64,000 nt of DNA from Candidatus Micrarchaeota archaeon (lineage in GTDB: Archaea; Micrarchaeota; Micrarchaeia; Anstonellales; Bilamarchaeaceae): NCBI GenBank assembly GCA_038046805.1, contig JBBSVO010000006.1:215166-279165 (forward strand), read 5' to 3'. This document shows, one piece after another, positions 1,419 through 54,170 of this stretch (position 1 is the stretch's first letter; each line of letters starts with the position of its first letter). Both the position numbers and the translations under genes were made by a program. The notes below the pieces were generated by a model. That model ran no database searches. It had not been told where the DNA came from and saw only the letters and a program-made list of their open reading frames with translations.

Positions 1419-1431
1419 TCCCTCGAGTTCA

Positions 1432-2785: not shown

Positions 2786-3021
2786 GTTATAAGGGCAAAA
2801 ACCTTCAGGAAAAACCATGGAGGTTTACGGAATCCTCCCATGCAGGGATTTTAAAAAACAATTGAGCCTTTTTGGCTTAGGGGTTATCAGGGCAAAAACA
2901 CGTCCGGTTGAACGGCGATCCGTTCAATGGACCATTGAAACCACCTTGTTTCAATAGGTCGCGAAAAACCATGGAGAAGCCAATAGTTTCGGCGCAATAC
3001 TCCCATGCAAAGGATGTTAAA
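2786..3021. repeat. Degenerate tandem duplication (copy 1 ~2786-2855, copy 2 ~2883-3021)
   Basis: Shared blocks gttat(a/c)agggcaaaaac, gaaaaaccatggag, ctcccatgca..ggat.ttaaa. Confidence 0.75.
2903..2960 (-). mobile_element. Double-hairpin micro-element copy 1
   Basis: Reverse complement GA-CCTA-TTGAAACA aggt GGTTTCAA-TGGTCCA-TTGAACGG atcg CCGTTCAA-CCG-GA. Confidence 0.75.
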
Positions 3022-5493: not shown

Positions 5494-5895
5494 TGCAGGG
5501 GACAGGATTTTCAATTACCACGGGAGTATCACGCCTACGTTTTTCTTTTGGCGTGTCAGGAACGACCGACAAAACGACGCTTCGTTTTGTGGTCCATAAA
5601 ACGTTACGACGTTTTATCGGACGCATCGTTCCTGAGCATGTTCAAGAACGAAATGTCGTTCTTGACATGAAACCCTCAGACCTTTTCTTTTTTAAAAGAA
5701 AAGGGGTATGGGTTTGAACCTGTGAAGACGCTAGGTCATCAGATTTCCTATCCCGCATTCGGGAAAAGAACAAACGAGATCTTGAGTCTGACGCGTTTGA
5801 CCGTTGCGAAACCAGTTTCCAGTTGCCTGTTTCCAGTTCCCAAAACGCGAAACTGAAAACCCTAGACAGAAAACTGACTTCTCCGCCACCCCTGC
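5494..5895 (-). tRNA. tRNA-Leu(CAA) with three introns: D-loop (~5804-5880), anticodon loop (~5745-5780), T-loop 59/60 (~5508-5712)
   Basis: Reverse complement GCAGGGG-TG-GCGG-AG[77]CGGTCAAA-CGC-G-TCAGA-CT-CAA-G[36]A-TCTGA-long variable arm-ACAGG-TTCAAA[205]T-CCTGT-CCCCTGC-A; acceptor, anticodon and T stems pair perfectly after removal. Confidence 0.85.
5564..5621 (+). mobile_element. Double-hairpin micro-element copy 2 (inside tRNA-Leu T-loop intron)
   Basis: GA-CCGA-CAAAACGA cgct TCGTTTTG-TGGTCCA-TAAAACGT tacg ACGTTTTA-TCG-GA. Confidence 0.8.
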
Positions 5896-33588: not shown

Positions 33589-34977
33589 ATGATTTTCGCA
33601 TTTGTAGTGGTTTTGATAGCCTTTGCACTATTTCTCTACGTGCTTGGGCTGGATATCCCGGGAACATGGAAATTCGCAGTTTCAGTTGCAGAAATGATTG
33701 TCGTGGGGCAGGTTCTCAGCATGAAATATAATCTTGGCGCAAGCTGGGGGCTAATATTATTCAGGACGAAAAAAGGACTGGACATTATCGCGTCACTGGC
33801 AAAACATGAAAAATTCTGGAGTTTTTTCGCAGAAGTTGGAACCCTAATGTCTTACGGGGCACTTTCATTCATTTTCATGCGAAAATCTGTTTCAAGAAAC
33901 AGTGCAATTGTAGGATTTATTCTTCTTTTGTTCCTTGCTTTGTTTGTCTCCGCGCCGGTTCTTGGATTCCTTGCAGTGAATGTGAAGGGGGCACTGCCCA
34001 ATCAAGATGCATTAAGTAGTGGAGCAACCGAGAGCGCAACGCGCAGCATAGACGGCTTTCTCCTCTTATGGTTTGCTTTACTTTTGGGCGGAGGAATGTT
34101 TTTTGTGCTTCTTGCCAGTATTCTAATGTACGGGGTCGTAGTGCTTAGTGCGCTTTCATCAACCGTATTCTCTGGAACAACTGCAATACAGGATACGAAT
34201 CCAGGTGCGACGTTTCTTCTTCCAGGGATAAATATTCCTTTTATTGAGGGCATAATCGCGCTTTTGGTCATTCTTGTAGTTCATGAGGGTGCGCATGCGG
34301 TTCTTGGAAAAATGGCACGCGTTCCGATTCTTTCTTCCGGAGTTGTATTGTTTGGGGTAATCCCTGTCGGGGCTTTTGTTGAACCAGACGAGGATTATCT
34401 GAAACGGATTGAGAAAACCAAGCAGACGCGGGTGCTGGTTGCAGGCTCAACTGCCAATCTTATTACCTCTGTAATTACATTCATAATTTTTGTAGGTTTC
34501 ATGCTTTCCGCATTTGCACTGAATCTGAATGAACGCGGACTTCTTGTTGCAACTGGAGACGCATCCGGCACGCTTCAGAAAGGTGACATGATTTACAAAC
34601 TCAACGGAGAGGACGCGCTCGGTTACAAAAATATTTCAATTCCTAAAAATTCGTCGGTCTCCTTACTCACCAATCACGGGGACATTTCACTCAAAACCAA
34701 TATAGATGGAAAAATGGGAATAACCTTTTATCCGCTATCGGGCGGTTCACTTATCTTCGCAAAATTCAAATATGGGTTTTTGGATTTCATCTACCTGACA
34801 CTAGGCCTGATTTTCGCCCTGAATTTCGTTGTAGGGACAATAAACCTTCTCCCGCTTCCGTTCTTTGACGGTTACAGGATTCTGGAATTGAACGCGCCGC
34901 ATCCGATAGTGGCAAAGGCGCTTATGGTAATTACGCTAATCGCCTTCCTAATGAACTTCGTGCCGTGGCTGTTCTGA
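33589..34977 (+). CDS. Site-2 protease family (M50) membrane metalloprotease
   Basis: VHEGAH, GAFVEPDE, AGS.AN, NLLPLPFFDG. Confidence 0.92.
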   Translation: MIFAFVVVLIAFALFLYVLGLDIPGTWKFAVSVAEMIVVGQVLSMKYNLGASWGLILFRTKKGLDIIASLAKHEKFWSFFAEVGTLMSYGALSFIFMRKSVSRNSAIVGFILLLFLALFVSAPVLGFLAVNVKGALPNQDALSSGATESATRSIDGFLLLWFALLLGGGMFFVLLASILMYGVVVLSALSSTVFSGTTAIQDTNPGATFLLPGINIPFIEGIIALLVILVVHEGAHAVLGKMARVPILSSGVVLFGVIPVGAFVEPDEDYLKRIEKTKQTRVLVAGSTANLITSVITFIIFVGFMLSAFALNLNERGLLVATGDASGTLQKGDMIYKLNGEDALGYKNISIPKNSSVSLLTNHGDISLKTNIDGKMGITFYPLSGGSLIFAKFKYGFLDFIYLTLGLIFALNFVVGTINLLPLPFFDGYRILELNAPHPIVAKALMVITLIAFLMNFVPWLF

Positions 34978-35003
34978 CCTAAGGGTTTTCCGCAGATTTG
35001 AAC

Positions 35004-35059
35004 GACCAATCGAAACGACAGTTTCAATGGTCCATGGAACGTTGCGACGTTCTATCGGA
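35004..35059 (+). mobile_element. Double-hairpin micro-element copy 3
   Basis: GA-CCAA-TCGAAAC gaca GTTTCAA-TGGTCCA-TGGAACGT tgcg ACGTTCTA-TCG-GA. Confidence 0.8.
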
Positions 35060-35118
35060 CGATTCGTTCAATTGGGCTAAAAACAAGAAAATAAGATTGC
35101 GTGTGCAAGAGTTAATAC

Positions 35119-35499
35119 TTATATCTGAACCCCGTTCACAACCCCATCCTGCCCAACGCGGTTTGTGACTTTTACCTTTCCAACTTCGGTATTAAGCACA
35201 GCGCCTTTGGTTATGATATTCTGTCTTACATATTCTGGATTGTGGCTTTCAACAACGCCGAGTATTTTCGCCTTTTTCATCCCATTCTTTGTTACTACAT
35301 TTACAAAAGCAGCCTTTTTGATGCGAATCCGCCTGTTTCCTCCTCTTACTCGTTTGATGCTTCGCACGTCCTTGTCAGAAACCTTTGTTGCAGTGAATGC
35401 ACTGCCTATTTGTGAAAGCCTTTTGTTCTGTGACGGAATTCTCTTTCCGCCGGTTCCTGCTGAAACTTTTTTTATCCTCGGTCTGTGATATTGTTGCAT
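35119..35499 (-). CDS. rps8e: 30S ribosomal protein S8e
   Basis: TGGK, RVRGGN, RQNIITKGAV..TE.G...VT.R.GQDGVVNG. Confidence 0.95.
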   Translation of the reverse strand: MQQYHRPRIKKVSAGTGGKRIPSQNKRLSQIGSAFTATKVSDKDVRSIKRVRGGNRRIRIKKAAFVNVVTKNGMKKAKILGVVESHNPEYVRQNIITKGAVLNTEVGKVKVTNRVGQDGVVNGVQI

Positions 35500-35575
35500 G
35501 AATACACCTCAAGCCAAAATTGGTAACGTTTTAATATTGGCACAGCTTTAAAATCCTTATCCTGACGGTATTTCT

Positions 35576-35983
35576 ATGATCTTCACCCGTGTTTCATCTT
35601 CTCTTGGAAAAAATGCGCTTCTGGACATTGCGGCCGAGCTAAGTATCCTGCTTCTGCGTCCTTCTGCAATCTCCTCAAAAAAACAGCTTGAACTGGCGTT
35701 TTATCTGGCGAATAAGTCGTTCGGAACCGGGCATTCCATTGCAAAAAAATTCCATCTTGAATTTCTCTTGTGGCTTGCTGGCTGCAAGGATATCCGAAAG
35801 GCTTTTGCGGAAACAACATTCACGGATGCGAAGGACATCCTAGTAATTTCGTTCGCACGCGGAACAAAAAAACAAGTAATTGGGCAAATCCTCGATTCGC
35901 TTTCATCTAACGAAAAGAAGTTCTCGCTTTCTGATGAAGTTGAGCCGCTCGTTTTGGAAAAAATCTCCCTCTCAAGGGTTTAA
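35576..35983 (+). CDS. cgi121: KEOPS complex subunit Cgi121
   Basis: A.KSF..G..IAK...LEFLL.LAG...IR.A. Confidence 0.75.
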   Translation: MIFTRVSSSLGKNALLDIAAELSILLLRPSAISSKKQLELAFYLANKSFGTGHSIAKKFHLEFLLWLAGCKDIRKAFAETTFTDAKDILVISFARGTKKQVIGQILDSLSSNEKKFSLSDEVEPLVLEKISLSRV

Positions 35984-37518
35984 CCTTTCTCCAATTCTCT
36001 CAAAAGCAGTTCCTTATCTATCGGCAAATCAATTCTCAGAGTCTTGTGAATAAAGTCGAACATTTCCACGAATTTTGCCTTATTCACAACAGTGTCTGCG
36101 TAAATCCTTTTTGCCATATCCTTTAGTTTAATATCTTTACCTACCAGTTCGTAAAGCATTACGCCCTCTTTCCCATATTTTTTATATATTGCATATCCTT
36201 CATCGCCGTATTTCTTGCGCACGTCTGTGCGTGGCATGGCTTTGAGCATGACAAGGCGTTTTTCAAGAAGAAACGCAAGCACTGTTTCCACTTCATAAAG
36301 CGGTATGGCGTTCTTAATTGCAAAATCAATAATGTCGTTCTTCCCGTTTACGTTTTCGAGTATCTTTCCGCCCCGGTCACCGAATTTTAGCAGAACATTG
36401 CTTTTTGCATAAAGCGCCTGCACCATATCCACTGGCGCCTTTATCGGAACATTTATCGGTCCAACTTCTTTTTTTGCACCACTATTCTCTATTGCTTCGT
36501 CTTCTTCTTCAGCAAGTGGTTTGAATCCGCTTTCTGCAACCGTTGGCGCAGGTTCTTCCTTCTTTTTCTCTCCACCCGGATATTCTAGTTTGATTATTCC
36601 CTCTTCATCCATGAAGTCGAGCATCTCAACCAGTTTTGATTCGCTTACTCCGGTTTCCTTTATTATTTCTTCAGCCGTTCTTTGGCCGTCAATGAGCTTG
36701 TATACTTTTATGCCTGTTTCGCCATATTTATCTTTGATAATTCTTTCAACAGGGCTTAGTTCCTCCTCTTCCGTGCCATGATGGGAAACGGGTTCTATAT
36801 CCTCTTTCATTTCCAATTGAGTCGTTTCCAATTCTTCCTCGTGCGATTTTTCCAGTTCATTCTCTTCTTTTGAGTCTGGTTCCTCTTCTTTTGGCTCAGT
36901 TTTCTCCGCTTCAAATTCCATCCAGCTTTTCGGTTCCTCTTTCTCTTCTTCTGCTTCTATTGGTTCGAACTCCTCTTTTTTCTCTTGAATCGGTTCTTCA
37001 TCTTTAGAAGTATCTTCCACAGGCCCCTCTTTCTCTTTTTTCTCAGGCTTTTCTTCTTCTAATCCTATTGGTTCTATATCTATTGGTTTAATTTCGTCAA
37101 GTGTTTCAGAAGGTTCAGGCTCTTCTTTTGGTTTTAACAAATCTTTTTTCACCCACGGAGGCGCAGGCTCTCCAGTTTCCTGTTCCGCGTTTCGTGTTTT
37201 TGGTTCCGGTTCTTCGGTTCCAAGTTCCGCCTCTTCTGCCGGTTTCTTTCTTCGGGCTTCCGTGCCTCCTGATTCTACTGCTGAAAGCTCTACCATCCCC
37301 GCCTCTTCCATATAACTAAGCATTTCTGCGAATATGTCCGGTTCTATTTCCAAATCTTTTCTAAGTTCTTCGGCGGTTCTTTTTCCAGTAATTGCCTTGT
37401 AGATATGGAGTCCAAGTTCTCCGAATTTTTTTAGAAGAAGATTCTGGTTCTTAAATCGATTAAGCGGACCCTTTTCGATTTTTGTTATCTTGTAATCTAT
37501 TCCAGGTTCCATTGTCAT
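35980..37518 (-). CDS. Hypothetical protein with repeated winged-helix-like domains and acidic linker
   Basis: Repeats of K(F/Y)GE.G..(I/V)Y..I.G.RTAEE.......L..M.E.G; Glu/Pro-rich middle. Confidence 0.7.
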   Translation of the reverse strand: MTMEPGIDYKITKIEKGPLNRFKNQNLLLKKFGELGLHIYKAITGKRTAEELRKDLEIEPDIFAEMLSYMEEAGMVELSAVESGGTEARRKKPAEEAELGTEEPEPKTRNAEQETGEPAPPWVKKDLLKPKEEPEPSETLDEIKPIDIEPIGLEEEKPEKKEKEGPVEDTSKDEEPIQEKKEEFEPIEAEEEKEEPKSWMEFEAEKTEPKEEEPDSKEENELEKSHEEELETTQLEMKEDIEPVSHHGTEEEELSPVERIIKDKYGETGIKVYKLIDGQRTAEEIIKETGVSESKLVEMLDFMDEEGIIKLEYPGGEKKKEEPAPTVAESGFKPLAEEEDEAIENSGAKKEVGPINVPIKAPVDMVQALYAKSNVLLKFGDRGGKILENVNGKNDIIDFAIKNAIPLYEVETVLAFLLEKRLVMLKAMPRTDVRKKYGDEGYAIYKKYGKEGVMLYELVGKDIKLKDMAKRIYADTVVNKAKFVEMFDFIHKTLRIDLPIDKELLLRELEKG

Positions 37519-37639
37519 CAGGATCACTTACCATTTTCGGGTTATAAAATATATGACTTATAGATTAATCTCGCGTATTGCTTTCGCAATTCTTTTTTGG
37601 ATCACTATAATACATAAGTGTGGATTAAAAATATTGATG

Positions 37640-37730
37640 ATTGGCTTTTAGCATTAGTTTATAGTAAGTGGCTAACTGCTAATCGCTAACCACTAACTGC
37701 AAACTGCTAATCGCTAACCACTAACTGCTA
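37640..37730. repeat. Degenerate heptamer tandem repeat (CTAA(C/T)NN) with partial inverted arm
   Basis: ctaactg ctaatcg ctaacca ctaactg caaactg ctaatcg ctaacca ctaactg (37672-37727). Confidence 0.85.
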
Positions 37731-37773
37731 ACCCACCTTCATCTTTTTAAACCATACATTCGTGTATACTGGT

Positions 37774-39501
37774 ATGGGCCTTGACGAGCTTCTCATTACA
37801 ACCGGAGTTGACGCGCTAGTTCGTCTTATTAAGGAAAAAGGTATGATTGAACTTTCTTTAGCTGCGCAGCTTTTGAATATTGATGCCGTTACTATTGAGG
37901 ACTGGGCACACACACTCGAGGAAGAAGGAATAATAAAAATAGAATATCATCTCACAAAGGTCTATTTAGCATGGGTTCAGCCTTCTGCAGAGGAAATTGA
38001 AAAGGAAAAAATCTCTATCACAAAAGGAAAGCAGGAAGTGATGCAGGAGATCGCAATTCTCAGAGAAAAGATTGCCCCCCAGGGAAAGGAACTCCGGGAT
38101 CTGAAGACCGAGTTTTCTGAAGTTTATAAAAAATTAAAGCCTGAAATGGAACGGCTTGGTAAATCCTTCAAGGACATCTCAGCCACACGGGAAAAAGGAG
38201 GAGAAAAGCTGATCAAACATCTTGAAAATCTTGACAATCTGCGTGCAGAGACAAATGGCCTTCAATCTGGCATAAATGATTTAAAAAAACAGATTTCTGA
38301 ACTTTCCGAGCAATTTAAGGAGAAGTCCTCTGCAGAACCACGGATCGTTTCAATAAAAAAGATGCAAGCGTCTTTCGAAGAACTAGGTACTGATCTCGCA
38401 AGCGTTCGCAAGACTGTTACCTCTCTTGCAAAGACAAGTCAAAAACCGCCAGTGCAACATGATGAAATGAAGAAACTAGCTGCTTCAATCAATGAACAAT
38501 TGGCTGCTTTGAAGAAGTCCATCGCAGAAACCCGGGGGTATGCAACAACAATAAAGGATGGCGTCGAACTTGTTGCTTTGACTGATCAAGCTTTCAAAGA
38601 ACGTTCTGATCGCATTTTACAGGCAAAAAAGGATGCCGAATCATTGCTAACTACGTTTGAAGAGTTGAAAGTGCGCAGTACTCTGCTTTCTGAGAAAATG
38701 CATGAAGATGCCGAGGCTCTGTCCCAATTATCCGAATCTGTTTCATTTGCCCATGGTAAGGGAGCTGGAAAGCAAATTTCACCGAGTGATCTCGACAAGA
38801 AACTTGTTGCTATGGAGGAAACAGAAGCAAAACTTGCTGCAAAGCTGGCTGCACTTGAGCAGGCCATGTCTTATGTTCCGAAAGAAGGGGGCGTTTCAAA
38901 AGAAGAAGTGGAAGAACTCCTGAAGACACTTGATGAAAAGAAGAAAATCCTTTCAGGTGAGATCGCGGAATTATTCAGTGCAGTAGAAGAGGAAAGCGGC
39001 ACATATACGACATTCCAGAAGATAAAGGAACGCGCGCTTTCATCTCTGGAAGAATATTCCACCAAACTTGAAAAACTGAGTACCTCTATAAAATCCATTT
39101 CAGAAGAAACAGGTAAAATCGAAAAAGAAGCGGAATCCAGTTTTGAAAAATTAAAAGGAACTGTCGGTGTCAAGGACGTAGAAGGCATTCTTTCTTCAGG
39201 AGAAAAACTAGTGGAAAAACAACATTTACTCGATGATATGGCAGAATCTATAGACGCACTTATTACAGAAGCGGATAATGTCTCCAAACATCTTAGCCTT
39301 CTTGCCAAGGAAGCGGAGTTAGTTTCTTTACGTGAGAGTGGAGTAGCTCCACCCTCTTCGCTTTCCTCAACCGGAGGAAAAGTACCGACCCAGGATGAAC
39401 TTGTAACTAATCTTTCGCTTACAAATAATGAACAAAAAGACTTTGAAAAGAAAAGAGAGGAGCTAAGGAATCTCATTAAAAAGTTGTGGGAAGAAGGTTA
39501 A
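37774..39501 (+). CDS. Long coiled-coil protein with N-terminal wHTH-like domain
   Basis: ITTGVDALVRLIKEKG.I....A...L......IEDW...LEEEG; heptad-rich remainder. Confidence 0.7.
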   Translation: MGLDELLITTGVDALVRLIKEKGMIELSLAAQLLNIDAVTIEDWAHTLEEEGIIKIEYHLTKVYLAWVQPSAEEIEKEKISITKGKQEVMQEIAILREKIAPQGKELRDLKTEFSEVYKKLKPEMERLGKSFKDISATREKGGEKLIKHLENLDNLRAETNGLQSGINDLKKQISELSEQFKEKSSAEPRIVSIKKMQASFEELGTDLASVRKTVTSLAKTSQKPPVQHDEMKKLAASINEQLAALKKSIAETRGYATTIKDGVELVALTDQAFKERSDRILQAKKDAESLLTTFEELKVRSTLLSEKMHEDAEALSQLSESVSFAHGKGAGKQISPSDLDKKLVAMEETEAKLAAKLAALEQAMSYVPKEGGVSKEEVEELLKTLDEKKKILSGEIAELFSAVEEESGTYTTFQKIKERALSSLEEYSTKLEKLSTSIKSISEETGKIEKEAESSFEKLKGTVGVKDVEGILSSGEKLVEKQHLLDDMAESIDALITEADNVSKHLSLLAKEAELVSLRESGVAPPSSLSSTGGKVPTQDELVTNLSLTNNEQKDFEKKREELRNLIKKLWEEG

Positions 39502-39538
39502 TCTGACATACGATTATTTATTACATAAGGTGATCCTG

Positions 39539-41140
39539 ATGGCAAAAGGCGATGAAAAAGAAAATAAACTTGTGGAATCAATAAAAGAGGGTATTGAAGA
39601 AGGCGAAGAAAGCGAAGGCTCAAAAAAGCCAGATTACCAAACGCGGGAATCTGTCAGAAAAACTTCTGCTTTATTGACTTATTATTCATTTTCCAGCGAA
39701 GGCATTCCGGTTGATGTCCGCATCACAAAAAAGGCGGATTTTGTTCCTATTTATGAGGTTACAATTCAGGGAATTGCCGAAGGTACGAAGCTTATACTGG
39801 AAACAAAACTTCGCGCAGAACTTATTTCCGAAGTCAAACTCGATATAAGTGAAATACTTGATCCTAAACGGTTTGCAGATGTAAAGAAAAAATTCCTCGA
39901 TGCCGCCGTGCGCATTCTTCAGAGAAATTTCCCAAGTCTTCCTGCAGATAAGATGAATTCACTGGCAGTATATCTTCTCCAAAACACGCTTGGTCTCGGC
40001 GAACTTGAAATTCTTTTGTCAGATGAATTGCTTGAAGAAATTGCAATAAACAATTCCCGTGATCCAATCTGGATTTATCACAAAAAATTCGGTTGGTGCA
40101 AGACAAATCTTCGCGTAAAAAATGAGGAAATGATTTACGATTACGCGTCTATGATCGCACGAAAGGTTGGAAGGCAGATAAACGTTCTCAACCCAATGCT
40201 TGATGCGCATCTTCCGACCGGAGACCGTGTGAACTCAACAGTGTTCCCCATCTCCCAGTTCGGAAATACACTCACGATACGAAAGTTTTCGAAAAATCCA
40301 TGGACAATAACGAACCTCATCCGTTCCAAAACCGTTTCTCCCGAGGTTGCAGCGCTTATCTGGATATGTATCCAGAATGAACTTTCACTTATTGTTTCGG
40401 GCGGAACCGGTAGCGGTAAAACCTCATTTTTGAATGCAATGGCAGGGCTTATTCCCGCGAATCAGCGTATAATCAGCATAGAAGATACGCGCGAGCTTAC
40501 GCTCCCATCTTTCCTTCATTGGATTCCGATGAACACAAGAGAAGCGAATCCAGAGGGGAAAGGAGAAGTTACAATGCTTGATTTGATGGTTAATGCACTA
40601 AGGCAAAGACCCGATAGAATCCTAGTCGGAGAAATCCGCAGACAGCGCGAAGCTGAGATTCTATTCGAGGCAATGCACACGGGCCATAGTGTTTATGCAA
40701 CACTTCATGCAGATAATTCCGAGCAGACGATCTCTAGATTGCTCAATCCTCCGATAAACATTCCAAAAGAAATGCTTGACGCGCTTGCCGGGATTGTTGT
40801 TCAATTCCGCCACAGGAGATTTAACATAAGGCGCACGATTGAATTTTCAGAAATGCTCAAAAACGGGAACCTCAATACAATGCACCGATGGGATGTAAAA
40901 ACAGATAAAGTGAAAAACATTGCGAAATCCGAGAGGATAAATGAACTTCTTTCGCTTTACTCTGGAATGGACGATGCAGAAATAGATGCTGACCTTGCAG
41001 AAAAAACAGACATACTGAACTGGATGGTCAAAAACGGTTATGAGGGCGTAGATGAAGTAGGGGCAATAGTTTCGCAATATTATCTTGACCCTGATTTGGT
41101 TGTTGATGCGTGCAAGAAGGGCGCAAAGTGGCAGTTTTAA
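39539..41140 (+). CDS. Type II/IV secretion (pilus assembly) ATPase, CpaF/VirB11 family
   Basis: GGTGSGKTS, IEDTREL, LRQRPDRILVGEIR, AMHTGH..YATLHA. Confidence 0.93.
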   Translation: MAKGDEKENKLVESIKEGIEEGEESEGSKKPDYQTRESVRKTSALLTYYSFSSEGIPVDVRITKKADFVPIYEVTIQGIAEGTKLILETKLRAELISEVKLDISEILDPKRFADVKKKFLDAAVRILQRNFPSLPADKMNSLAVYLLQNTLGLGELEILLSDELLEEIAINNSRDPIWIYHKKFGWCKTNLRVKNEEMIYDYASMIARKVGRQINVLNPMLDAHLPTGDRVNSTVFPISQFGNTLTIRKFSKNPWTITNLIRSKTVSPEVAALIWICIQNELSLIVSGGTGSGKTSFLNAMAGLIPANQRIISIEDTRELTLPSFLHWIPMNTREANPEGKGEVTMLDLMVNALRQRPDRILVGEIRRQREAEILFEAMHTGHSVYATLHADNSEQTISRLLNPPINIPKEMLDALAGIVVQFRHRRFNIRRTIEFSEMLKNGNLNTMHRWDVKTDKVKNIAKSERINELLSLYSGMDDAEIDADLAEKTDILNWMVKNGYEGVDEVGAIVSQYYLDPDLVVDACKKGAKWQF

Positions 41141-41210
41141 TTGGCATTGAGCCTTGGGAGTGAGCTTTGAGCCATTGGCCCACGGCCCATCGCCCACTGC
41201 TCACAGCTAA
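41141..41210. repeat. Degenerate heptamer repeats in inverted arrangement
   Basis: tgagcct/tgagctt/tgagcca followed by ..ggccc/..cgccc/..tgctc units. Confidence 0.65.
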
Positions 41211-41224
41211 ATGGTGGCTAAAAA

Positions 41225-43213
41225 ATGGCTGAAACAGCGTCGTTTGATGATTTGGTAGTTTCCGTGCGCAGAATAGAGTCTACTGCACTTCCAAAATCTG
41301 ACTTTCCTGAAAAAATAGATGCACGGAGAGTACTCGAATTTTCCCCAACGAAATTTTTAGACCAGGGATATCATGAAATTTTGAATGACTATTCTGTAAT
41401 TCAGAAGATTATCTCTACGTCAAAGCTTGATATTTTTACTTCTGGGGCAGGAGGAGAAAGAAAAGTCCCGCAGATGCAAACAATGGAAATAGAGTCAAAA
41501 GTAAAAGAAATAACTTCTGCGGCACTTGAAAGCAGGATGAAACTCGAGGAAGTCACTGTACCACCCCCAATAGAAGAATTTGAGGCTGAAAAAGGAGCAG
41601 AAAAAGTATCCTTAGAAAAACCCCAACCCACGAAGCCCTCTAAATCTCCGTCGGCTATGTTGTTCGAATCGGATTTTGACAAGGAATTGGAATCTGAATT
41701 TAAGCTTGAAGTTGAAAAAGAAAAAACCATCTCATTTGAAGAAAAACCCGTAGAAGCGTTGGGTAAGGAAGCGAAAAAGTCCGGGAAACCGGAATTTGAA
41801 GGTTTTGGGAGTGAAAAAGAGGAAGTTGTTGCCCCGCAATTTGAAGTTGAAACCGAAACAAAGGACGAAGCGCAAAAGAAAACTGAAAAAGAATTGAAGC
41901 CAACCAAGCTCACATTGCCCGTTCCAGAAGAAAAGGAGATTGAAAAACCATCAGAAGAATCTTTGCCTGAAAAACAGCTAGTTGAGGAAGTTCATCCAGA
42001 ACTAAAGCATGCGGAACCAAAGGTACCTCCGCTTTTGTTGCAACGTTCTGAGCAAGCCGGAGCCCAGCATTTTGAAAAAATGGAAGAGCACTTCAAATCA
42101 GAGTGGGGCGCGGGAATGAGCGAATCAGATATTCGAAAAAAGATGGTAGAACTTACGCGAGAGCTTTTCAAGGAAAAATCAACTGTTCGTAAAGAGGAGC
42201 TGAAAGCGCAGATTGTGATGTTAAAAGGTATGCTTGGAAAAGGAGAAGGGGCCGTCGTGGCACCAGCGTCTGTCGCTGTCTTAAAATCGGAAAAAGAAGA
42301 AAAAGAAACTGAAAAGCAGGATAAAAAGGCAAGGGCATTGGCTGCCCTGCGAGCCTTAAAAGAAAGGCGCAAGGGCGGTGCTGGAAAAGAAATTCCAATG
42401 GCTCCAGAATCTGCGGCAGTGGCAAAGCCAAGCTATTCCACAGGATTGCTGGAAACTGTTTCAAACACCCAGCGCGTAGAACTAACCTCTGCCAAAGAGA
42501 ATGTTCTTTCATCATTTTCATCGAAAATCCAGGAATTTAAGGATCAATTTAATTCTTCAGTTGCTGCATTGGAGGAAGATGAACGTGAAGAAGGCAAAAA
42601 GAAGGCCTATGATAAATTCATCTTCAGTCTCACCGCTTTGAAGAATCAGCTCCCGGCATTTTCAGCAAAATTTGAGTCATTTGTTGCCAAAAAACATTCT
42701 TCCGAGCTCGGGAAACTTAAGGAATCTGTTGAAAAAGAAGATCCAAAGGGCGCGACGGCCGTTTCCGAAAAAATATCCACACTTCAAAAAATATATGCAG
42801 ACGAATTTGAAAATGTCCGCGATATCATCTCGCGAAATATAGATTCGGTTATAGATTCAATGGGTCCATTCGTATTTGCTGCAAAAGAAGAAGTAAAGGA
42901 AAAAGAAGAGCCTGCGCAAAAAGAGGAAATTTCGGGAAAGAGTGAAACCAAACCCAAAGAAAAGAAACCCGAAAAATCGGAAAAACAAGAAAAACAGGAA
43001 AAGTTTGAATCGGAAGACGTCCTTCGTGAGATCGAGGGTATGGATGACGGCAGTTTGCTATACTATCTCCATTCCACTGATAAAGAAACCTATCGTCAAT
43101 ACGAGCGCAAGCATATATCCAAACACGAGGCGGTTTTCAAGGCAAAGAGATTGATTGCCAAGGAACGTGGCATGAGTGCGGTTCAACTCGCAAAATATTT
43201 CGGAAAAGGTTAG
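41225..43213 (+). CDS. Large Glu/Lys-rich hypothetical protein in pilus locus
   Basis: 662-aa ORF, low-complexity acidic linkers and helical domains. Confidence 0.7.
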   Translation: MAETASFDDLVVSVRRIESTALPKSDFPEKIDARRVLEFSPTKFLDQGYHEILNDYSVIQKIISTSKLDIFTSGAGGERKVPQMQTMEIESKVKEITSAALESRMKLEEVTVPPPIEEFEAEKGAEKVSLEKPQPTKPSKSPSAMLFESDFDKELESEFKLEVEKEKTISFEEKPVEALGKEAKKSGKPEFEGFGSEKEEVVAPQFEVETETKDEAQKKTEKELKPTKLTLPVPEEKEIEKPSEESLPEKQLVEEVHPELKHAEPKVPPLLLQRSEQAGAQHFEKMEEHFKSEWGAGMSESDIRKKMVELTRELFKEKSTVRKEELKAQIVMLKGMLGKGEGAVVAPASVAVLKSEKEEKETEKQDKKARALAALRALKERRKGGAGKEIPMAPESAAVAKPSYSTGLLETVSNTQRVELTSAKENVLSSFSSKIQEFKDQFNSSVAALEEDEREEGKKKAYDKFIFSLTALKNQLPAFSAKFESFVAKKHSSELGKLKESVEKEDPKGATAVSEKISTLQKIYADEFENVRDIISRNIDSVIDSMGPFVFAAKEEVKEKEEPAQKEEISGKSETKPKEKKPEKSEKQEKQEKFESEDVLREIEGMDDGSLLYYLHSTDKETYRQYERKHISKHEAVFKAKRLIAKERGMSAVQLAKYFGKG

Positions 43214-43244
43214 TTTTATAAAACTCCAATACAAAGGTGTTTCA

Positions 43245-44120
43245 ATGGTTGCTAGAAAATTCATTCCTGCCCAGGAACGGCAAAGAAAATATAATCCGTT
43301 TACTCCTATTGCAGAGCTTTTGCTTCCATATTTTCCGGATTTGAAAAAGAAATTGATCGGAGGACAGATCCAGCAGTCACCTATCGAATTTCTCGAAAGA
43401 GCGGCAATGTCTACGAGTTTTCTCTCAATAGCGCTTATCATTCTCACTGTTATGTTTTTTGTGCGAACAAATACATCTCTATTTTTCATTATTCCTTTTT
43501 TAGTCGTATATCCGTTTCTCACATTCAATTTTATGATGCTTTATCCTGATGCTTATCTAAAGAAAAGGCAAAGGGAACTAGATCGGGACATAGTATTTGC
43601 AGGAAGACACCTGGTAATTGCTCTCCGCTCCGGAATGCCGCTTTTTGATTCAATTGTCGGTGTGTCCTCTGGCCATGGAGAAGTTAGCAAGGAATTCAAT
43701 TCTATTGTTGAAAGGGTTACGATCGGTACTCCTCTCTCACAGGCAATCCGCGAGGTTGCTCAGAACAACCCCTCAAAGTCTTTTGTTCGCCTTACAATGC
43801 AGATAAACAATGCCCTTTCTTCTGGTGCTGATGTTGCAAGTTCCATGGATGCAGTGCTTGATCAAATTTCAAAGGAGCAGATGATCGATCTAAAAGAATA
43901 TGGGCAAAAACTTACCCCGATGGTAATGTTCTTTATGATATTCGGGATTATCATGCCATCGCTTGGCGTTGCATTTGCGATAATCCTGTTCTCGTTGATA
44001 AGTGGTGGGAAAGTTGGAATAACTTCTTCGGTTCTAGTGCTTGTGTTTGCGCTTATAGCCGTAGTTCAGTTCTTGTTCCTGGCAATGGTGGAGAATTCAA
44101 GACCCAATTATGTAGTTTAG
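43245..44120 (+). CDS. Type II secretion system F / TadC-like platform protein
   Basis: LRSGMPL, G.VS.EF..IV.....G.PL..A, TM helices. Confidence 0.88.
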   Translation: MVARKFIPAQERQRKYNPFTPIAELLLPYFPDLKKKLIGGQIQQSPIEFLERAAMSTSFLSIALIILTVMFFVRTNTSLFFIIPFLVVYPFLTFNFMMLYPDAYLKKRQRELDRDIVFAGRHLVIALRSGMPLFDSIVGVSSGHGEVSKEFNSIVERVTIGTPLSQAIREVAQNNPSKSFVRLTMQINNALSSGADVASSMDAVLDQISKEQMIDLKEYGQKLTPMVMFFMIFGIIMPSLGVAFAIILFSLISGGKVGITSSVLVLVFALIAVVQFLFLAMVENSRPNYVV

Positions 44121-44125
44121 GTGAA

Positions 44126-45187
44126 ATGACTATGGCCGTACGCTCATCTTTCTTTGAAATCTTCGGAAGGCTCTTATCCAGAGAGCAGATACGCGGCATA
44201 AGCAAGCACCTTTCAGCAGCAGGCATAGAATACTCGGCAGAGGCATTTGCAGGATACTTTGTCCTTAACGTGGTTATTCTCACTCTTTTACTTGCATTTT
44301 CCATTTGGTATGTTCCTTCTCTCAATAAACTGGTGTTCGGCCTTGTTCTTGTCGTACTGCCAACTGCATATGCAGAAGTTGTTGCAATAATGTCTGTGAT
44401 GCTCGCAGTGTTCGTAGTATTTTTTGTTCTATTCTTCGTTCTGTCCTCTGTTCTTATAGTTATGACCGAAGCGCGCAGAAAGGCACTCGAAGCAGCACTT
44501 CCAGACTTTCTCATGCTTGTTGCAGCGAACATCCGCGCAGGAATGCCGCTTGATCAGGCGATGTGGTATTCTGCAAAACCGGATTTTGGTTTAATCTCAA
44601 CAGAAATAAAAAGTATAATCAAAAAATCATTCAGCGGAAGTTCTCTTTCATCAGTGCTTGACGAGCTTTCTGAAAGATTTGATTCAAAGGTTTTTGCAAG
44701 AACTGTCTCATTGATAAAACAAGCATCTAATACTGGTGGAGAGCTTTCAGAAATACTTGAACGCACTTCTCAGGATGCGCGCAATGCGCTTTTAATGAAA
44801 AAGGAAATCTCCGCCTCTCTAGTGCTATACGAAATTTTTGTATTCTTTTCCGCTGCGATAGGAACTCCATTCCTGTTTTCAGTTTCATCAAAACTTATCG
44901 GAGTTCTTGAAAAGGCATTTACCTATCTCCCAGCCACAAAAACATCTGTACAGCAATTTTCATTCTTCAAGCCAGTTGCCCCACTGGTTACTTCAACGGA
45001 ATTTTATTATTTCACCTTGGCAGCCCTGCTTGTAACAGCAATCTTCTCATCATTCATCATAGGTGTGATTCGCACAGGTTCAAAGAACGAGGGAATCAAA
45101 TTCCTTCCGTTTGTTGCGGTGAGCGCGTTTATAGTTTATTTCATTGTGTCCACGCTTTTGGACACGTTCTTTTCAAGTATTTCTTGA
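44126..45187 (+). CDS. Type II secretion system F / TadC-like platform protein
   Basis: LPDFL.L.A.NIRAGMP...A, GGEL..ILE. Confidence 0.88.
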   Translation: MTMAVRSSFFEIFGRLLSREQIRGISKHLSAAGIEYSAEAFAGYFVLNVVILTLLLAFSIWYVPSLNKLVFGLVLVVLPTAYAEVVAIMSVMLAVFVVFFVLFFVLSSVLIVMTEARRKALEAALPDFLMLVAANIRAGMPLDQAMWYSAKPDFGLISTEIKSIIKKSFSGSSLSSVLDELSERFDSKVFARTVSLIKQASNTGGELSEILERTSQDARNALLMKKEISASLVLYEIFVFFSAAIGTPFLFSVSSKLIGVLEKAFTYLPATKTSVQQFSFFKPVAPLVTSTEFYYFTLAALLVTAIFSSFIIGVIRTGSKNEGIKFLPFVAVSAFIVYFIVSTLLDTFFSSIS

Positions 45188-45255
45188 ATATACAAAACCA
45201 ACCAAGTAATTCCGAGTGTTGACTTTGGAATTTCAGAGAGGGTTTTGTATAGATT

Positions 45256-45313
45256 GACCGACAAATCGGCGCACCGATTTGTGGTCCAGTGAACGGTTCG
45301 CCGTTCACTTGGA
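45256..45313 (+). mobile_element. Double-hairpin micro-element copy 4
   Basis: GA-CCGA-CAAATCGG cgca CCGATTTG-TGGTCCA-GTGAACGG ttcg CCGTTCAC-TTG-GA. Confidence 0.8.
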
Positions 45314-45374
45314 GACGAGAAAACATTCTTGTCTCAGGATAAAATACAAAATAACTATTATGGGGTGAAAAAAT

Positions 45375-45926
45375 ATGGTTGAAAAAAGCGTTCGCCACCA
45401 GTCCAAAGGACAGGCGGCGATGGAATACCTTATGACATACGGCTGGGCGATATTGGTTATCGTCATTGTTATTGCGGCACTATTGTTCCTGAATCCGTTT
45501 AAGGCACCGGAAACATGCTTATTCCAGCAGCCTGGTTTTAGCTGCTCTGAAGCAAAGCCGCAGGTTTTTGTAGGTGAAGATGGAGCAACAAAGGTCAGCA
45601 TGAGAATCTACAACAAACAGGGCCAGGTTGTCAAGCTGAAGAAAGTTCTCTGCACGAATGTTGCCAGCGGTGATATAACCTCGGATAATGCAGACGATTT
45701 TTCCGCAGAGCCGATGTCGGTTCCTGCCGGTGGAAGCGTTCTCTTTTCTGGAGATACTGCTGTGACATGCAAGGATGAAAGCGGAAATGCATTGCAGTTA
45801 TCCGCAAATTCCGAGTTCAAGGGAATCGTTGCATTGTGGTATAACTTTGACAATGATCCTGACCAGGACATAGAACGGACGGCTACGGCAACCTTGATTA
45901 GCACTGTGCTTGCGACAGGACAATAA
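45375..45926 (+). CDS. Type IV pilin (class III signal peptide)
   Basis: KGQAAMEYLMTYGWAILVIVIVI. Confidence 0.9.
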   Translation: MVEKSVRHQSKGQAAMEYLMTYGWAILVIVIVIAALLFLNPFKAPETCLFQQPGFSCSEAKPQVFVGEDGATKVSMRIYNKQGQVVKLKKVLCTNVASGDITSDNADDFSAEPMSVPAGGSVLFSGDTAVTCKDESGNALQLSANSEFKGIVALWYNFDNDPDQDIERTATATLISTVLATGQ

Positions 45927-46050
45927 TTCGGAAATTCTTTCTTTTTTCTTATTTTTTCTATTTTTTGATTTTTTACGGTTTCTTTATTATTTTGCTTTCT
46001 TTGTCTGTTTCAGGATGGGCTATTTAAATATTGTGGTATATACTATATTT

Positions 46051-47115
46051 ATGAGTTTAAAGTTGTTTAGCAGTGGCTTTTCAAAAGAAGGTGCCTGCGA
46101 TCGGCGAGTCTTCCTTAAACGTCTTGGTGATTTAGCTTTGGCATCGTCCATCGGCTGTGGCGGAGAGTTGCTTATCTCAACGCATAACTTACACTGCGAG
46201 TCAATTCCCATGCGTACTGAAGATCAACAAGTGTCAGAACAAGTACTCTTGGCTCTTAAAGCCATACCAAAATCTACGGATAACATCCAAGATATGCTTT
46301 TGGCGTTGCCCTTTTTGAATGCCATACACTATGGGTTGACTGGAGATGTTTTTCATCCAGATCTGAGAATCGCGTTTGAATGTCCGGGTGATCTGTTGCC
46401 CACGCTTCCAGATAGAGTGGCAGGCGCAGTGTATATTGGCGAACACAAAACCATTCTCACGCACCAGGTAAGTGGATTTATGACTCGTGGTTTGTGGCTA
46501 GGCGTAGTTATGCACGAAAGTGGGCATGCGTATGACCATCTGGAACTTGGAGATCATAAAAACGAATTTTGTTCAACATTCTTCGAACTGTGTGGTTCAG
46601 TGCTTATCGACAGATCAATTCCACCTCCCGAAAAGCAGTGGGTGAGCGAAGGCGAGAAATTTGATGCAAACATGCTAATGGAAGAAAATCTCTCTGCATC
46701 CCTAAAACTATTGCGTATGAGTATGCATGATGCTTATTTGGAATACCATAGACAACTAACTCAAAAAGAAGCACCAATTCTTAGTTATGGCGCCGGCACT
46801 CTCAATGCGTATGGCAAGTTGGTTGAAGCAGGGGGTATCCAAGGTGCATTCGAATTAATAATATCTAGGGACAAGGCAGAATTCTTGGAAGAGTCCCAAA
46901 AACCGAGATCATTGAAAGAATTCGCAGAATTGCTACGCAATGGTTTGGAAATCCTGAAACAAGAGATGCTGTCCGGGGTATATGGTAAGAAACTAACTCA
47001 AATCGTCTTTACTGATCCTAGTAAAAAAGACGAATCTACTGTCTTTTCGTATGTAGATTATTTATTTCAAAAATTAGAAGAGCAAGTTTCTTTGTATGTT
47101 GCAAAACTCTCATAA
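46051..47115 (+). CDS. Putative exported zincin-like metallopeptidase
   Basis: RRVFLK twin-arginine motif, SSIGC lipobox-like, VMHESGH (HExxH) with downstream E. Confidence 0.5.
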   Translation: MSLKLFSSGFSKEGACDRRVFLKRLGDLALASSIGCGGELLISTHNLHCESIPMRTEDQQVSEQVLLALKAIPKSTDNIQDMLLALPFLNAIHYGLTGDVFHPDLRIAFECPGDLLPTLPDRVAGAVYIGEHKTILTHQVSGFMTRGLWLGVVMHESGHAYDHLELGDHKNEFCSTFFELCGSVLIDRSIPPPEKQWVSEGEKFDANMLMEENLSASLKLLRMSMHDAYLEYHRQLTQKEAPILSYGAGTLNAYGKLVEAGGIQGAFELIISRDKAEFLEESQKPRSLKEFAELLRNGLEILKQEMLSGVYGKKLTQIVFTDPSKKDESTVFSYVDYLFQKLEEQVSLYVAKLS

Positions 47116-48369
47116 ACCCTTTTTATTTCCACACGCCAATTCCTCTATCGCTCTTGCCGCCCTTTCCCCTGATCCTCCGTCAATTGAGAGAAGCTGCTCG
47201 CTTAGGAATCCCTCACGGTTCTTTTCCATATTCTTTAGAAGCGTCGTGTCGCCAAGAAGCCTTCTTATTACTCCTTTGATTTCCTCTTTTTTTCTCATTT
47301 CCAGCGCAACTCCTTTGCTGACGTATTCCTCAGGATATGGGATACACGGGTATGGTCTTCCTGTAAGATTCACTATTCCGACAGGTCGTCCCATTATTAT
47401 TGCGTCAAGCGCAACACTGGAAATGTCTGTTAGAACTGCTCCAGAAACATCTATTAGGTCATAAATATTCGTGTCTTTGGTTACAATTACCCGGGTACGC
47501 TGCTCCGTCGTTAGATATTTGTCATAATCTGATTGAATTTCACGCGGATGGATTTTAATGATGAGTTGAACCTTCTCGTTATCATCCTTCATTTCGCAGA
47601 CTTCTGAAACCACGCTCTTTACAAAGTATTCCATGTCCTCATAAGTCCAGAGCCTTGCGCCTGCCAGATCTGATGTTGCAAGAAGGACAATTTTTTTGTT
47701 TTGCGGAATTCCGAACGTCTTTCGTATATCGCTTTTGGGTTTATATCCTCCGGAAAATTTATCGTAATCAGGGTTTCCAACAACAACTACTCGGGATGGT
47801 TCAGTGCCTTTATCCACAAGCATCTTTTTCGTGAATTCCCCAAACACTGCAATCCTTGTGCAGTTTCCGATTCCATAGCGCGCACGCGGCTTCACATTAT
47901 CATTTTGGATTTTGTTTTTGTTTCCAATCGCACGCAATTTATCTCCCAACCGTTTCAGCAGGTATTGCGGCTTGTAGAGCGAGAATGCCCTTAAAAGATG
48001 CCTGAATGTGAATTTTGTTGTTGCAGTGATTACATGGTATGCCCCGTCCTGAAGAGTTATGCTTGGAATCCCAAGTTCGTTTGCAGCATCAACAAACATT
48101 GCAGGGGTTACTTCAGTATAATTTCCAATGACAACAACAGAGGGCTTTTTGCGTTTTATAATATCACGTGCAGAGTCTATGTTGAGCTCTTCCAGTCTTT
48201 CATACGGGATTCCCGCGGCATCCAACGCTTCTTCTATTCCCTCTTGTTTGAACTTGGCTATGCTCACGACTTCTAATCTTTTGCGCAAATGCTTGGCAAC
48301 CGGAAGAAATTTTCTTATCTGGATGTCATTTCCGGGAATATAAAGGATACAACGATTGTTTTCTGTCAT
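47110..48369 (-). CDS. GT-B fold surface-carbohydrate protein (CDP-glycerol glycerophosphotransferase / UDP-GlcNAc 2-epimerase-like)
   Basis: VVGNP.YD, IKIHPRE, SSV.LDA...G.P, DGGSGERAA. Confidence 0.75.
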   Translation of the reverse strand: MTENNRCILYIPGNDIQIRKFLPVAKHLRKRLEVVSIAKFKQEGIEEALDAAGIPYERLEELNIDSARDIIKRKKPSVVVIGNYTEVTPAMFVDAANELGIPSITLQDGAYHVITATTKFTFRHLLRAFSLYKPQYLLKRLGDKLRAIGNKNKIQNDNVKPRARYGIGNCTRIAVFGEFTKKMLVDKGTEPSRVVVVGNPDYDKFSGGYKPKSDIRKTFGIPQNKKIVLLATSDLAGARLWTYEDMEYFVKSVVSEVCEMKDDNEKVQLIIKIHPREIQSDYDKYLTTEQRTRVIVTKDTNIYDLIDVSGAVLTDISSVALDAIIMGRPVGIVNLTGRPYPCIPYPEEYVSKGVALEMRKKEEIKGVIRRLLGDTTLLKNMEKNREGFLSEQLLSIDGGSGERAARAIEELACGNKKGL

Positions 48370-48394
48370 TTTGGTTCCACCCATGTTTCCTATT

Positions 48395-49180
48395 CTATTT
48401 TTTCCTAACAAGGCGAGACGAGTACTGCTGACTTAAGTCTGCAGGTAAATTTTTTGTAACTACCATACCGGAAGCAGTACCAGAGCCCGACACATCGGGT
48501 CGTCTCACCTTGTTACCCCACATTATTACCGGGTCTCCGAACCCTGTTTTTACAAAAAGGCATTTCTTGGATAAAGAGAACGGGATTGGAATGCGTTGGA
48601 CTGTTTCGACATGAAGTTCTTTCCATTCACCAGCCTTTTTCAGAATTCCTTCCCACTCTTTTGCAGAATGCGCATTTCTATATGCTGTTTTTGCCCTCAA
48701 CATCTTGAAAAAGAATGGGCGTTCAGAACTCGGTCCTGAACAAATAAATGTTCCGCCATCCTTCAGCGCGTTGTAGCAATTCCTCACCACGGCTTCCGGG
48801 TTTTCAATAAGTCCGAGCGTTCCAAGGCACGTGACCAAATCAAATTTTTCATTTACAGGAATCGGAAACGGCTTTGTTGCATCGTGAATGTAAAGATAAG
48901 CCTCGTCAATGTTTTTTCTAGCTTCTGTTATCGCATACGCTGAGACATCAAGACCATAAAGTTTTTCATATCCGTGCTCGCGGAATAATTCAAGCATATA
49001 TCCGTACGAGCATCCGACATCAAGAACCGCGCGGTAGGAACCATCTCCTCCTCTCCACCGGATTCCTAGAAAATCAAAAAGATCTCTGTGATATACTTTC
49101 ACATACTCCTGTATTCTTCGATAAGCCTCTCTTCCTTCCTCTGTTTTGAAATAAGCATCCTTACTGAAATCAAAAGACAT
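48395..49180 (-). CDS. Class I SAM-dependent methyltransferase
   Basis: VLDVGCSYG, GLDVS, FDLV, LKDGG. Confidence 0.85.
   Translation of the reverse strand: MSFDFSKDAYFKTEEGREAYRRIQEYVKVYHRDLFDFLGIRWRGGDGSYRAVLDVGCSYGYMLELFREHGYEKLYGLDVSAYAITEARKNIDEAYLYIHDATKPFPIPVNEKFDLVTCLGTLGLIENPEAVVRNCYNALKDGGTFICSGPSSERPFFFKMLRAKTAYRNAHSAKEWEGILKKAGEWKELHVETVQRIPIPFSLSKKCLFVKTGFGDPVIMWGNKVRRPDVSGSGTASGMVVTKNLPADLSQQYSSRLVRKK
48406..48515. repeat. Structured element with 16-bp terminal inverted repeats within the methyltransferase 3' end
   Basis: taacaaggcgagacga ... tcgtctcaccttgtta (15/16); internal gtactgct/agcagtac and cccga-caca-tcggg stems. Confidence 0.65.
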
Positions 49181-49234
49181 GTAATTTACCTCATTGCCTT
49201 GAGCCCATTGCTCATAGTTCAGGGCCTATGGCTT

Positions 49235-49924
49235 TTATTCTCTTGTTTTAATCACTTGTGCCGGAACTCCAACCGCAATAGAATTCGGCGGAATATCCTT
49301 TGTAACAACGCTATGCGCACCAATTACTGCGCCATTTCCTATAGTTACTCCCTTTAGAACCGACACCCCTCTTGCAAGCCATACGTTGTTTCCGATTTTA
49401 ACTGGTTTTGTGCGAATGCGTTCTTCATTCATATTCTCGCTTGCGTTTGTGTCATGGTCTGTGTCTATTATCATTACAAATCCCGAAATAAGGCAGTTGT
49501 CTCCTATATCTATTTTGTCAAACGCGTTAATGTTTGCAAGCTGTCCGAAATAGCAGTTTTTTCCGATTTTAAGCGTGCCGTTATAGGCTGTATTGAGCCG
49601 CACCATTTTCTCAAGATGCGTTCCGCCTCCGATTTCTATTTTTCCATTGTCCCGTGCCCAGATTTCACAATTGCCATCCAAACCAACCTCGTCGCCTAGC
49701 GCAATCTCGCCTTTATTATACGCGCGGAAGCTGTTCCACCCGCTCAGGCGGACGTTTCGCCCGATCTGTTTGCATTTTCGCATGATATTTAGTCTATTTA
49801 TGATAAGGAAAGGATTAAGCGCATCTACAAGGCGGTCCAGCACTATCTCTATTGTTTGCCAGAATCCGTATTTTGAAAGAAATCCAGATAGTTTATTGGA
49901 GACATGCCCTGGTTCGTAAACCAT
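49235..49924 (-). CDS. Hexapeptide-repeat acyltransferase
   Basis: IGDNCLI, PVKIGNNVWL, GVTIGNGAVIGAHSVVTKDIP...AVGVPA. Confidence 0.9.
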   Translation of the reverse strand: MVYEPGHVSNKLSGFLSKYGFWQTIEIVLDRLVDALNPFLIINRLNIMRKCKQIGRNVRLSGWNSFRAYNKGEIALGDEVGLDGNCEIWARDNGKIEIGGGTHLEKMVRLNTAYNGTLKIGKNCYFGQLANINAFDKIDIGDNCLISGFVMIIDTDHDTNASENMNEERIRTKPVKIGNNVWLARGVSVLKGVTIGNGAVIGAHSVVTKDIPPNSIAVGVPAQVIKTRE

Positions 49925-50005
49925 GCTAATATCTCATCTCCATGTATTTTAATTCTTACAGGTGTATAATCCACGTAATCTTTTATCGGTTTTTGGGTGT
50001 TTTCT

Positions 50006-52330: not shown

Positions 52331-52372
52331 GGGGCTCAGGCAAATATTTGAGGAATGTTACCGAGTTCTTGA

Positions 52373-52386
52373 AGATGCAGGGGAAG
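52373..52386 (-). repeat. tRNA 3'-end-like direct repeat copy A (att-like)
   Basis: agatgcaggggaag = reverse complement CTTCCCCTGCATCT. Confidence 0.6.
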
Positions 52387-53762: not shown

Positions 53763-53764
53763 GT

Positions 53765-54112: not shown

Positions 54113-54170
54113 TCCGATTGTTCGACGCATCGAACAATGGACCATAAATCGCATTGGCGATTTATCGGTC
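54113..54170 (-). mobile_element. Double-hairpin micro-element copy 5
   Basis: Reverse complement GA-CCGA-TAAATCGC caat GCGATTTA-TGGTCCA-TTGTTCGA tgcg TCGAACAA-TCG-GA. Confidence 0.8.

Follow-up and report, generated by a model that had tools for sequence, protein, structure and literature searches.

A gene-free two-hairpin DNA element that nests in the hairpin tips of other repeats in a family of Micrarchaeota

A gene-free DNA unit of mostly 56 nucleotides, which we call element A, recurs in genomes of one family of Micrarchaeota, and about a third of its insertions lie at the boundary between the 5' arm and the loop of resident hairpins. We consider it reasonably probable that element A is non-autonomous mobile DNA which moves as a folded single strand, and that the enzyme responsible binds hairpins tipped with CG and cuts at GA^C-like sites (the caret marks the cut). 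The window, by which we mean the whole stretch of 64,000 nucleotides that was analysed, corresponds to positions 215166-279165 of contig C6 in the focal genome (G000; 1.2 Mb, 86% complete). Coordinates without a contig name are those of the window; C numbers denote contigs, other G numbers the genomes of relatives, and L numbers loci.

Element A is laid out as CC-R, hairpin 1, a GGTCC core, hairpin 2 and Y-GGA, with a length of 54-57 nt and with hairpins that each consist of a 9-bp stem and a four-base loop; its ends read CC... and ...GGA, and it has no terminal inverted repeats. Across 40 copies 99.6% of cells are paired and 16 pairs have changed on both sides, a level of covariation that none of 500 shuffles reached, slid controls also falling far below it. 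Of the 1476 stem cells in 82 copies, 1465 form Watson-Crick pairs and only 2 form G.T pairs. The copies were gathered with a search pattern that fixes ends and core and a finder that demands 7 pairs per hairpin. These counts show a fixed two-hairpin unit maintained by compensatory Watson-Crick changes, and the near-absence of G.T pairs points to folding as DNA, on either strand. When folded as a circle the unit is predicted to form a closed rod or dumbbell whose joined ends are base-paired to the central GGTCC, flanked by two single-base bulges. Both hairpin tips usually carry CGA followed by CG, which is the element's own preferred target (CGA^CG).

After recursive removal, 18 distinct sites of element A were counted in the focal genome. 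A strict pattern matched 32 stretches among species genomes, with titles naming Micrarchaeota, Bilamarchaeaceae or 'ainarchaeum sp.', and a further 61 metagenome stretches, while none of three patterns, the strict one included, had a match among viral contigs. Among relatives, 8 of 36 family genomes have the element, as against none of 24 genomes from other families, and its right half is present in 18 of 98 family genomes. Full-text searches of openly accessible papers listed no description of these elements of Micrarchaeota, and the words 'hairpin' and 'nested' do not occur in the available part of PMC13343696.

Five copies of element A lie in the window, in the following surroundings.

34986..35071, no strand assigned: focal host repeat, which with A excised matches the uninterrupted tip of a tRNA intron on C3
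34998..35005, plus strand: 5' arm of the host hairpin at the focal site, ending in the target A
35006..35059, plus strand: element A, 54-nt variant, the focal copy
35060..35071, plus strand: four-base loop (starting with C) and 3' arm (35064-35071) of the host hairpin
5511..5715, no strand assigned: 205-nt insertion, an outer layer of repeat family C with two passengers, missing at the orthologous site of G001
5554..5667, minus strand: element B (58 nt, TGTC...CATG...GACA), the middle layer, inserted 3' of a minus-strand A and split by element A
5566..5621, plus strand: element A, the inner layer, at the arm/loop boundary of a B hairpin
45247..45341, plus strand: host repeat of family H, with uninterrupted copies in G002 (L177) and, identical at 37 of 39 nt, on C6 and C7
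45258..45313, plus strand: element A, near the base of the host stem
2903..2958, minus strand: element A, in the variable tip of a tRNA-intron unit that here lies between genes (about 2862-2980)
54113..54168, minus strand: element A, in a dispersed repeat, no hairpin being restored

The initial annotation had stated that deletion of the element leaves a hairpin at three of the five copies, and all three hairpins were found, with restored arms at 34998-35005/35064-35071, at 5556-5565/5626-5635, and at 45255-45257 joined to 45314-45336 (one G.T pair). The remaining two copies (2903-2958 and 54113-54168) leave no 8-bp stem, and both lie within other dispersed repeats; an empty counterpart of the former's host occurs at C3:78032-78067, and the host of the latter has an empty version in L101 and a duplicate on C11. 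At the focal site, where the DNA fold of 34996-35073 gives z = -3.7, the match between host repeat and tRNA intron tip is 93.75% over 32 nt. The repeat is placed between convergent genes for an M50 peptidase (ending at 34977) and ribosomal protein S8e (35119-35499, minus strand). The peptidase stop lies roughly where the host repeat starts (34970-34990), and in G001 the frame is a few codons longer. Contigs from three studies, one of which may have supplied this DNA, cover 34500-35466 and show 0 differences, so the focal sequence is no assembly artefact; none of the contigs has a joint at which one of the three copies in 34500-54400 is skipped, though contigs alone do not show absence. Since the orthologous site in G001 holds an unrelated insert of 1.2 kb, the focal site is not polarisable by orthology. 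Rfam gave no match at gathering score in the window, and no credible match in 1-6500. Elsewhere in the window, a class III aminotransferase gene (49997-52330) carries an internal LAGLIDADG domain, probably an intein, and within the final 12 kb a motif of ~30-40 nt recurs, either between genes or downstream of them (52372, 53947, 56952 and 63865).

Insertion of element A takes place 3' of an A, and nothing is duplicated apart from this one shared base. An A precedes the left end at 17 of 17 copies in the focal genome and at 9 of 9 later sites, these being the two sets in which the base was unforced; in the collection matches it is fixed by the pattern. Position -2 of the target is G at 94 of 102 sites and position -3 is C at 54 of 88, giving a preference for GA^C in which only one target base is invariant. 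Earlier the unit to be removed had been described as the element plus one GA: deletion of CC...GGA is equivalent to this, but at unforced sites the base common to target and end is A, not GA. Two related elements obey the 3'-of-A rule too, again unforced: A2 at 8 of 8 sites, and B at 15 of 15 if a fit in one orientation is enough. We did not adopt a guide model in which the central strand pairs with the target, since it suits A (GA pairing with TC) and fails for the flanks of A2 and B.

The same annotation had suggested excising every copy and comparing the empty sites with random GA sites, and the comparison bears out its expectation: a spanning hairpin of at least 8 Watson-Crick pairs is left at 8 of 18 sites in the focal genome, against 628 of 15,500 non-coding GA sites (4%). 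Across genomes, 89 unique sites collapsed into 69 relatedness groups, of which 67 had full flanks (14 from the focal genome, 53 from others), and 27 of these 67 restore a spanning stem of at least 8 bp (6 focal, 21 others), whereas swapping flanks gave a mean of 3.5 and a maximum of 7 in 300 permutations. Of the 27 stem insertions, 20 come where the 5' arm ends, 2 just past the loop and 5 at other places in the stem. The position has a polarity. In all 30 tip insertions (here not collapsed for relatedness) the strand used has a loop starting with C; the other strand also has an arm ending in CGA in 26 of the 30, and its loop starts with a base other than C in 25 of these. Within the focal genome, 6 of 32 tips with a C loop have been hit versus 0 of 42 other tips (p = 0.005).

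How much of this reflects structure? One alternative is that the enzyme prefers the sequence (A)CGA^CG, which the elements themselves bring to hairpin tips, and that insertions survive only in junk DNA, with no recognition of structure at the target; we regard this as unlikely. All 17 copies checked in the focal genome are non-coding; many non-hairpin sites lie within other repeats; and of the 36 places where the word AACGACG occurs in non-coding DNA, 22 are hairpin tips, which makes sequence responsible for part of the tip bias. Element B often sits inside other repeats and yet has none of its 31 sites at an arm/loop boundary, and in a later set of 9 new sites from another pattern only 1 restores a stem. 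Against a purely sequence-based account, non-hairpin sites show no AACGA consensus, and 8 of 20 tip hosts have an arm end other than AACGA. Seven of 9 insertions at CGA^CG are in hairpins, compared with 34 of 113 available sites (p = 0.003). Position-weight models predict 2% of insertions at tips if non-hairpin sites form the training set and 4-7% if all sites do, while 6 of 16 and 20 of 67 were seen. When the comparison is confined to hairpin-bearing non-coding DNA, which served as a stand-in for safe havens, 23-25% are expected at tips, and the observed counts are 20 of 34 and 6 of 10, an excess of about 2.5-fold that persists within hairpin DNA (p = 1-2e-5 across genomes, 0.013-0.018 in the focal genome). 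All these backgrounds come from the focal genome alone, with home-made gene calls. We conclude that sequence preference and safe havens account for part of the bias but not all of it, and that structure and sequence both matter. Of the proposal that insertion targets extruded hairpins, a tip bias survives controls for local sequence and for hairpin DNA, the target being only possibly extruded at the moment of insertion; as a general rule the proposal was overstated, 40 of the 67 sites being without a spanning 8-bp stem, quite apart from the later set and element B.

Hosts are in many cases recognisable as repeats in their own right, direct evidence that they preceded the insertion. For 11 of 18 empty sites the focal genome contains an unbroken copy at another place, compared with 45 of 400 random non-coding GA sites, some of the 11 matches being hairpins of other family members. 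The host at 45.3 kb has uninterrupted twins, matched by BLAST, in G002 as well as on C6 and C7. At 5.5 kb the stack has three layers, repeat C, then B, then A, within the 205-nt block that same-genus G001 lacks (the boundary of the block can slide within a T run), and an empty copy of repeat C occurs on C9; whole composites are missing from orthologous sites. On C4 one A has been entered twice, by B in the core and by a further A in hairpin 2. Stacks reach three layers in the focal genome and four in G029 (a family-H repeat, A, B, B), supporting the suggestion that such structures grow recursively. A composite with B in the core of A occurs five times, in three genomes and at two or more kinds of host site, which we read as composites moving as units, repeated independent insertion being the alternative; its presence at different hosts suggests that an intact central core is not always needed.

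The sister elements share the closed form. Circular folding of A2 (core GCGCCC) and of B (core CATG) is also predicted to give a closed rod, the ends of B having only a 4-nt inverted match. The tip bias is specific to A, however, and is not a property of B, which is inside stems at 0 of 10 sites in the focal genome and 3 of 20 elsewhere; for A2 the count is 1 of 9. Further hairpin pairs were encountered. At C3:64180-64290 a single two-hairpin insert (53 nt, core GTGCAC) lies inside the first hairpin of an A; it is preceded by an A, and its own end is not A. L236 (G340:C34) and L212 (G266:C7) hold additional hairpin-pair families inside the core or first hairpin of an A, the host A in L212 being itself within an IS200-type end palindrome. 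Two-hairpin units of ~59 nt stand in tandem at the end of C7 and the start of C8, as a real array, a rolling-circle product or an assembly loop, and L217 has a partial tandem copy as well.

In the process that we envisage, one strand would be cut at two points, 3' of the target A on the left and 3' of the A that ends the element, and the flanks rejoined; a closed dumbbell of 56 nt would be released, its junction paired with the central GGTCC between two single-base bulges. The dumbbell would be pasted into a new A^ site, and replication would then copy the element. The enzyme would act in trans, binding CG-tipped hairpins and cutting S-G-A^C-like sites. As A, A2, B and their relatives carry CGA-CG tips, resident elements would attract this enzyme and at the same time present it with a cut site at the stem/loop edge, and selection against insertion in genes and functional non-coding DNA would add to the pile-up. 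The likeliest chemistry is an HUH-like peel-and-paste, given the conserved bases 5' of both cuts and the lack of duplication. The left hairpin of element A starts 3 nt from the cut, nearer than is usual for IS200/IS605 ends. Neither a circle nor an excision joint was observed, in material consisting of contigs only, and among insertions with co-oriented flanking genes, by crude gene calls, 23 are in the same orientation and 12 in the opposite one.

If element A moves as a folded single strand, its mover is probably not the ordinary IS200 TnpA of the focal genome, whose sole Y1 gene has an IS200-type end with B and A2, but not A, nearby. Among 99 family genomes, which are incomplete and related and from which an enzyme could have been lost, Y1 transposase is present in 6 of 19 genomes with A versus 19 of 80 others (p = 0.56), reverse transcriptase in 7 of 19 versus 21 of 80 (p = 0.40) and an island integrase in 9 of 19 versus 25 of 80 (p = 0.19). 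Profiles for serine resolvase and IS110 had no match in the focal 86%-complete genome, no neighbour protein recurred at loci L025-L117, and a crude screen for HUH motifs returned 3 unconvincing proteins. Element A half-sites flanking a gene were found neither in the focal genome nor in the loci, and no autonomous partner was found.

Alternatively, a tyrosine recombinase that works on folded single-stranded DNA might move the same dumbbell, in the style of integron integrase and attC or of Xer and folded phage DNA, with the host XerA as a candidate; we consider this improbable. Such chemistry needs micro-homology 3' of the cut, and on the other strand the invariant base of element A falls there; that no mobile enzyme tracks the element would moreover fit a core host enzyme. 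Tyrosine recombinases cut at spacer edges, though, whereas the proposed cut in element A lies at the centre of the core. The three Phage_integrase matches are island-type proteins of 402-403 aa beside which no cassette array was seen, and this family was not found in element-rich G001, G020 and G026. The resemblance to attC, as described in the available part of PMC8946536, lies in a folded single-strand site with dyad arms and extrahelical bases (predicted for element A) that conserves structure and varies in sequence; element A differs in having no cassette gene and no apparent attI or array, in its two closed loops and in its dispersed sites.

Element A is also found in RNA genes. Eighteen tRNA genes were detected in the focal genome, of which three have A, A2 or B in their introns and a fourth another hairpin pair; a fifth tRNA gene, on C4, was identified by eye as carrying element A. 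Nesting thus adds branches in about 5 of ~20 tRNA genes. A common branched intron unit (~100 nt) has a variable tip that accepts inserts, and in 6 of 8 pattern copies (9 rows, one dropped as unrelated) the tip is short and insert-free. The idea that nesting explains the multi-branched tRNA introns is consequently correct as regards added branches, but the insert-free units are still branched, and nesting therefore does not create the basic branched intron. The unit forms introns in tRNA genes such as those at C3:97879, C3:116338 and C6:32910, and it occurs in intergenic DNA as well, 2862-2980 included; it was also noted at 2765-2990 and C3:78030. A GACT...AGTC helix in it is reminiscent of P7 of group I introns, and Rfam, run on one locus carrying the unit, gave no match. 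A tRNA gene split by an intron (666-866, C6:216031, minus strand) was missed by ARAGORN. RT-16 RNA is free of element A in the focal genome but contains it in L017 and L095, and at C11:460-1842 (L121) a reverse transcriptase gene in two pieces adjoins RT-16 RNA (80.8 bits).

These contexts might suggest that the tRNA splicing machinery excises a circular RNA, which then enters structured RNAs by reverse splicing and is copied back into DNA by reverse transcription, copies being present both in tRNA introns and in RT-16 RNA beside a reverse transcriptase. Such an RNA route is largely refuted, and we give it very little credence: element A runs antisense to 4 tRNA genes but sense to one further tRNA gene and to RT-16 RNA, an occurrence in both orientations which argues against passage through RNA; G.T pairs are almost absent; reverse transcriptase does not track A; and the bulges of the predicted fold are single bases on one strand, unlike the bulge-helix-bulge of archaeal introns. 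Equally improbable is a local, homology-driven origin through template switching or recombination between similar arms with no dedicated enzyme, for which the arm style common to hosts and inserts and the partial tandem copies (L217; ends of C7 and C8) might be cited, since inserts are no closer to host arms (p = 0.09) or loops (p = 0.31) than in shuffled pairs (n = 19) and the precise ends and fixed length of the element recur across genera. Arm homology between host and insert, and kissing of their loops, are unsupported by the same comparison.

Taken as mobile DNA, element A has several relatives in behaviour, here compared on the basis of the available parts of the cited papers. Among them are the SMR-A elements of Haloquadratum walsbyi, small gene-free archaeal elements that insert into palindromes of other elements (PMC3119063), as element A does; SMR-A elements are about 110 bp long, with terminal inverted repeats and >95% identity within a type, whereas element A has 56 nt, conserves structure and not sequence, closes into a dumbbell, and nests in its kin and in itself. 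With PATEs and the IS200/IS605 family it shares two hairpins, a plausible single-strand circle and insertion without duplication 3' of a short target (PMC3119063, PMC5027513). IS608 inserts in this manner via a single-strand circle (PMC5027513), and terminal-only PATEs, at 52 bp, are near element A in size (PMC3119063). Unlike these, element A has no fixed target of 4-6 nt 5' of its left end, no autonomous partner that we could find and no co-occurrence with Y1, and its hairpins are, by eye, unlike the IS200 end hairpin beside the only Y1 gene of the focal genome.

The REP, BIME and REPIN-RAYT systems likewise present paired short palindromes that are mobile, intergenic mosaics, and palindromes used as targets (PMC3116915, PMC1525189), and insertion sequences targeting REPs are known in bacteria (PMC1525189). 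Element A differs from them in its fixed, spacer-free geometry, its low copy number, its archaeal host and its lack of a flanked RAYT-like gene or a GTAG-type tag, no such tetranucleotide being present at the hairpin foot in the consensus or column counts. The double-hairpin elements and GC clusters of fungal mitochondria are also tiny, gene-free and constrained by hairpins, and they merge into larger clusters (PMC5910586, PMC4478555), but they are organellar, GC42 having an AG target site, and the available text on them mentions neither a closed dumbbell nor tip targeting. MITEs have the terminal inverted repeats that element A lacks. Element A, then, works like SMR-A and like REP-targeting insertion sequences, yet it does not belong with PATEs, with REP-RAYT systems or with MITEs.

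More tentatively, and with some doubt on our part, A, A2, B and their relatives may constitute an undescribed class of minimal gene-free DNA replicators of 56-59 nt, closed dumbbells moved by a host enzyme and not by a transposase, which would encode their own landing pad in their tips and be mobile as composites. If this is true, selfish DNA would grow recursively in this archaeal family and feed both its branched tRNA introns and its intergenic mosaics. Element A is very small and precisely defined, its cut rule (3' of A) is clear, its closed intermediate can be predicted and its preferred target is built in; these features make testable the old puzzle of how SMR-A, double-hairpin elements and GC clusters move, and why they pile up. 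A warning follows for these genomes, in which strongly covarying, multi-branched predicted 'RNAs' can be stacked DNA parasites. Nesting shows one way for tRNA introns and structured non-coding DNA to become more branched in streamlined archaea.
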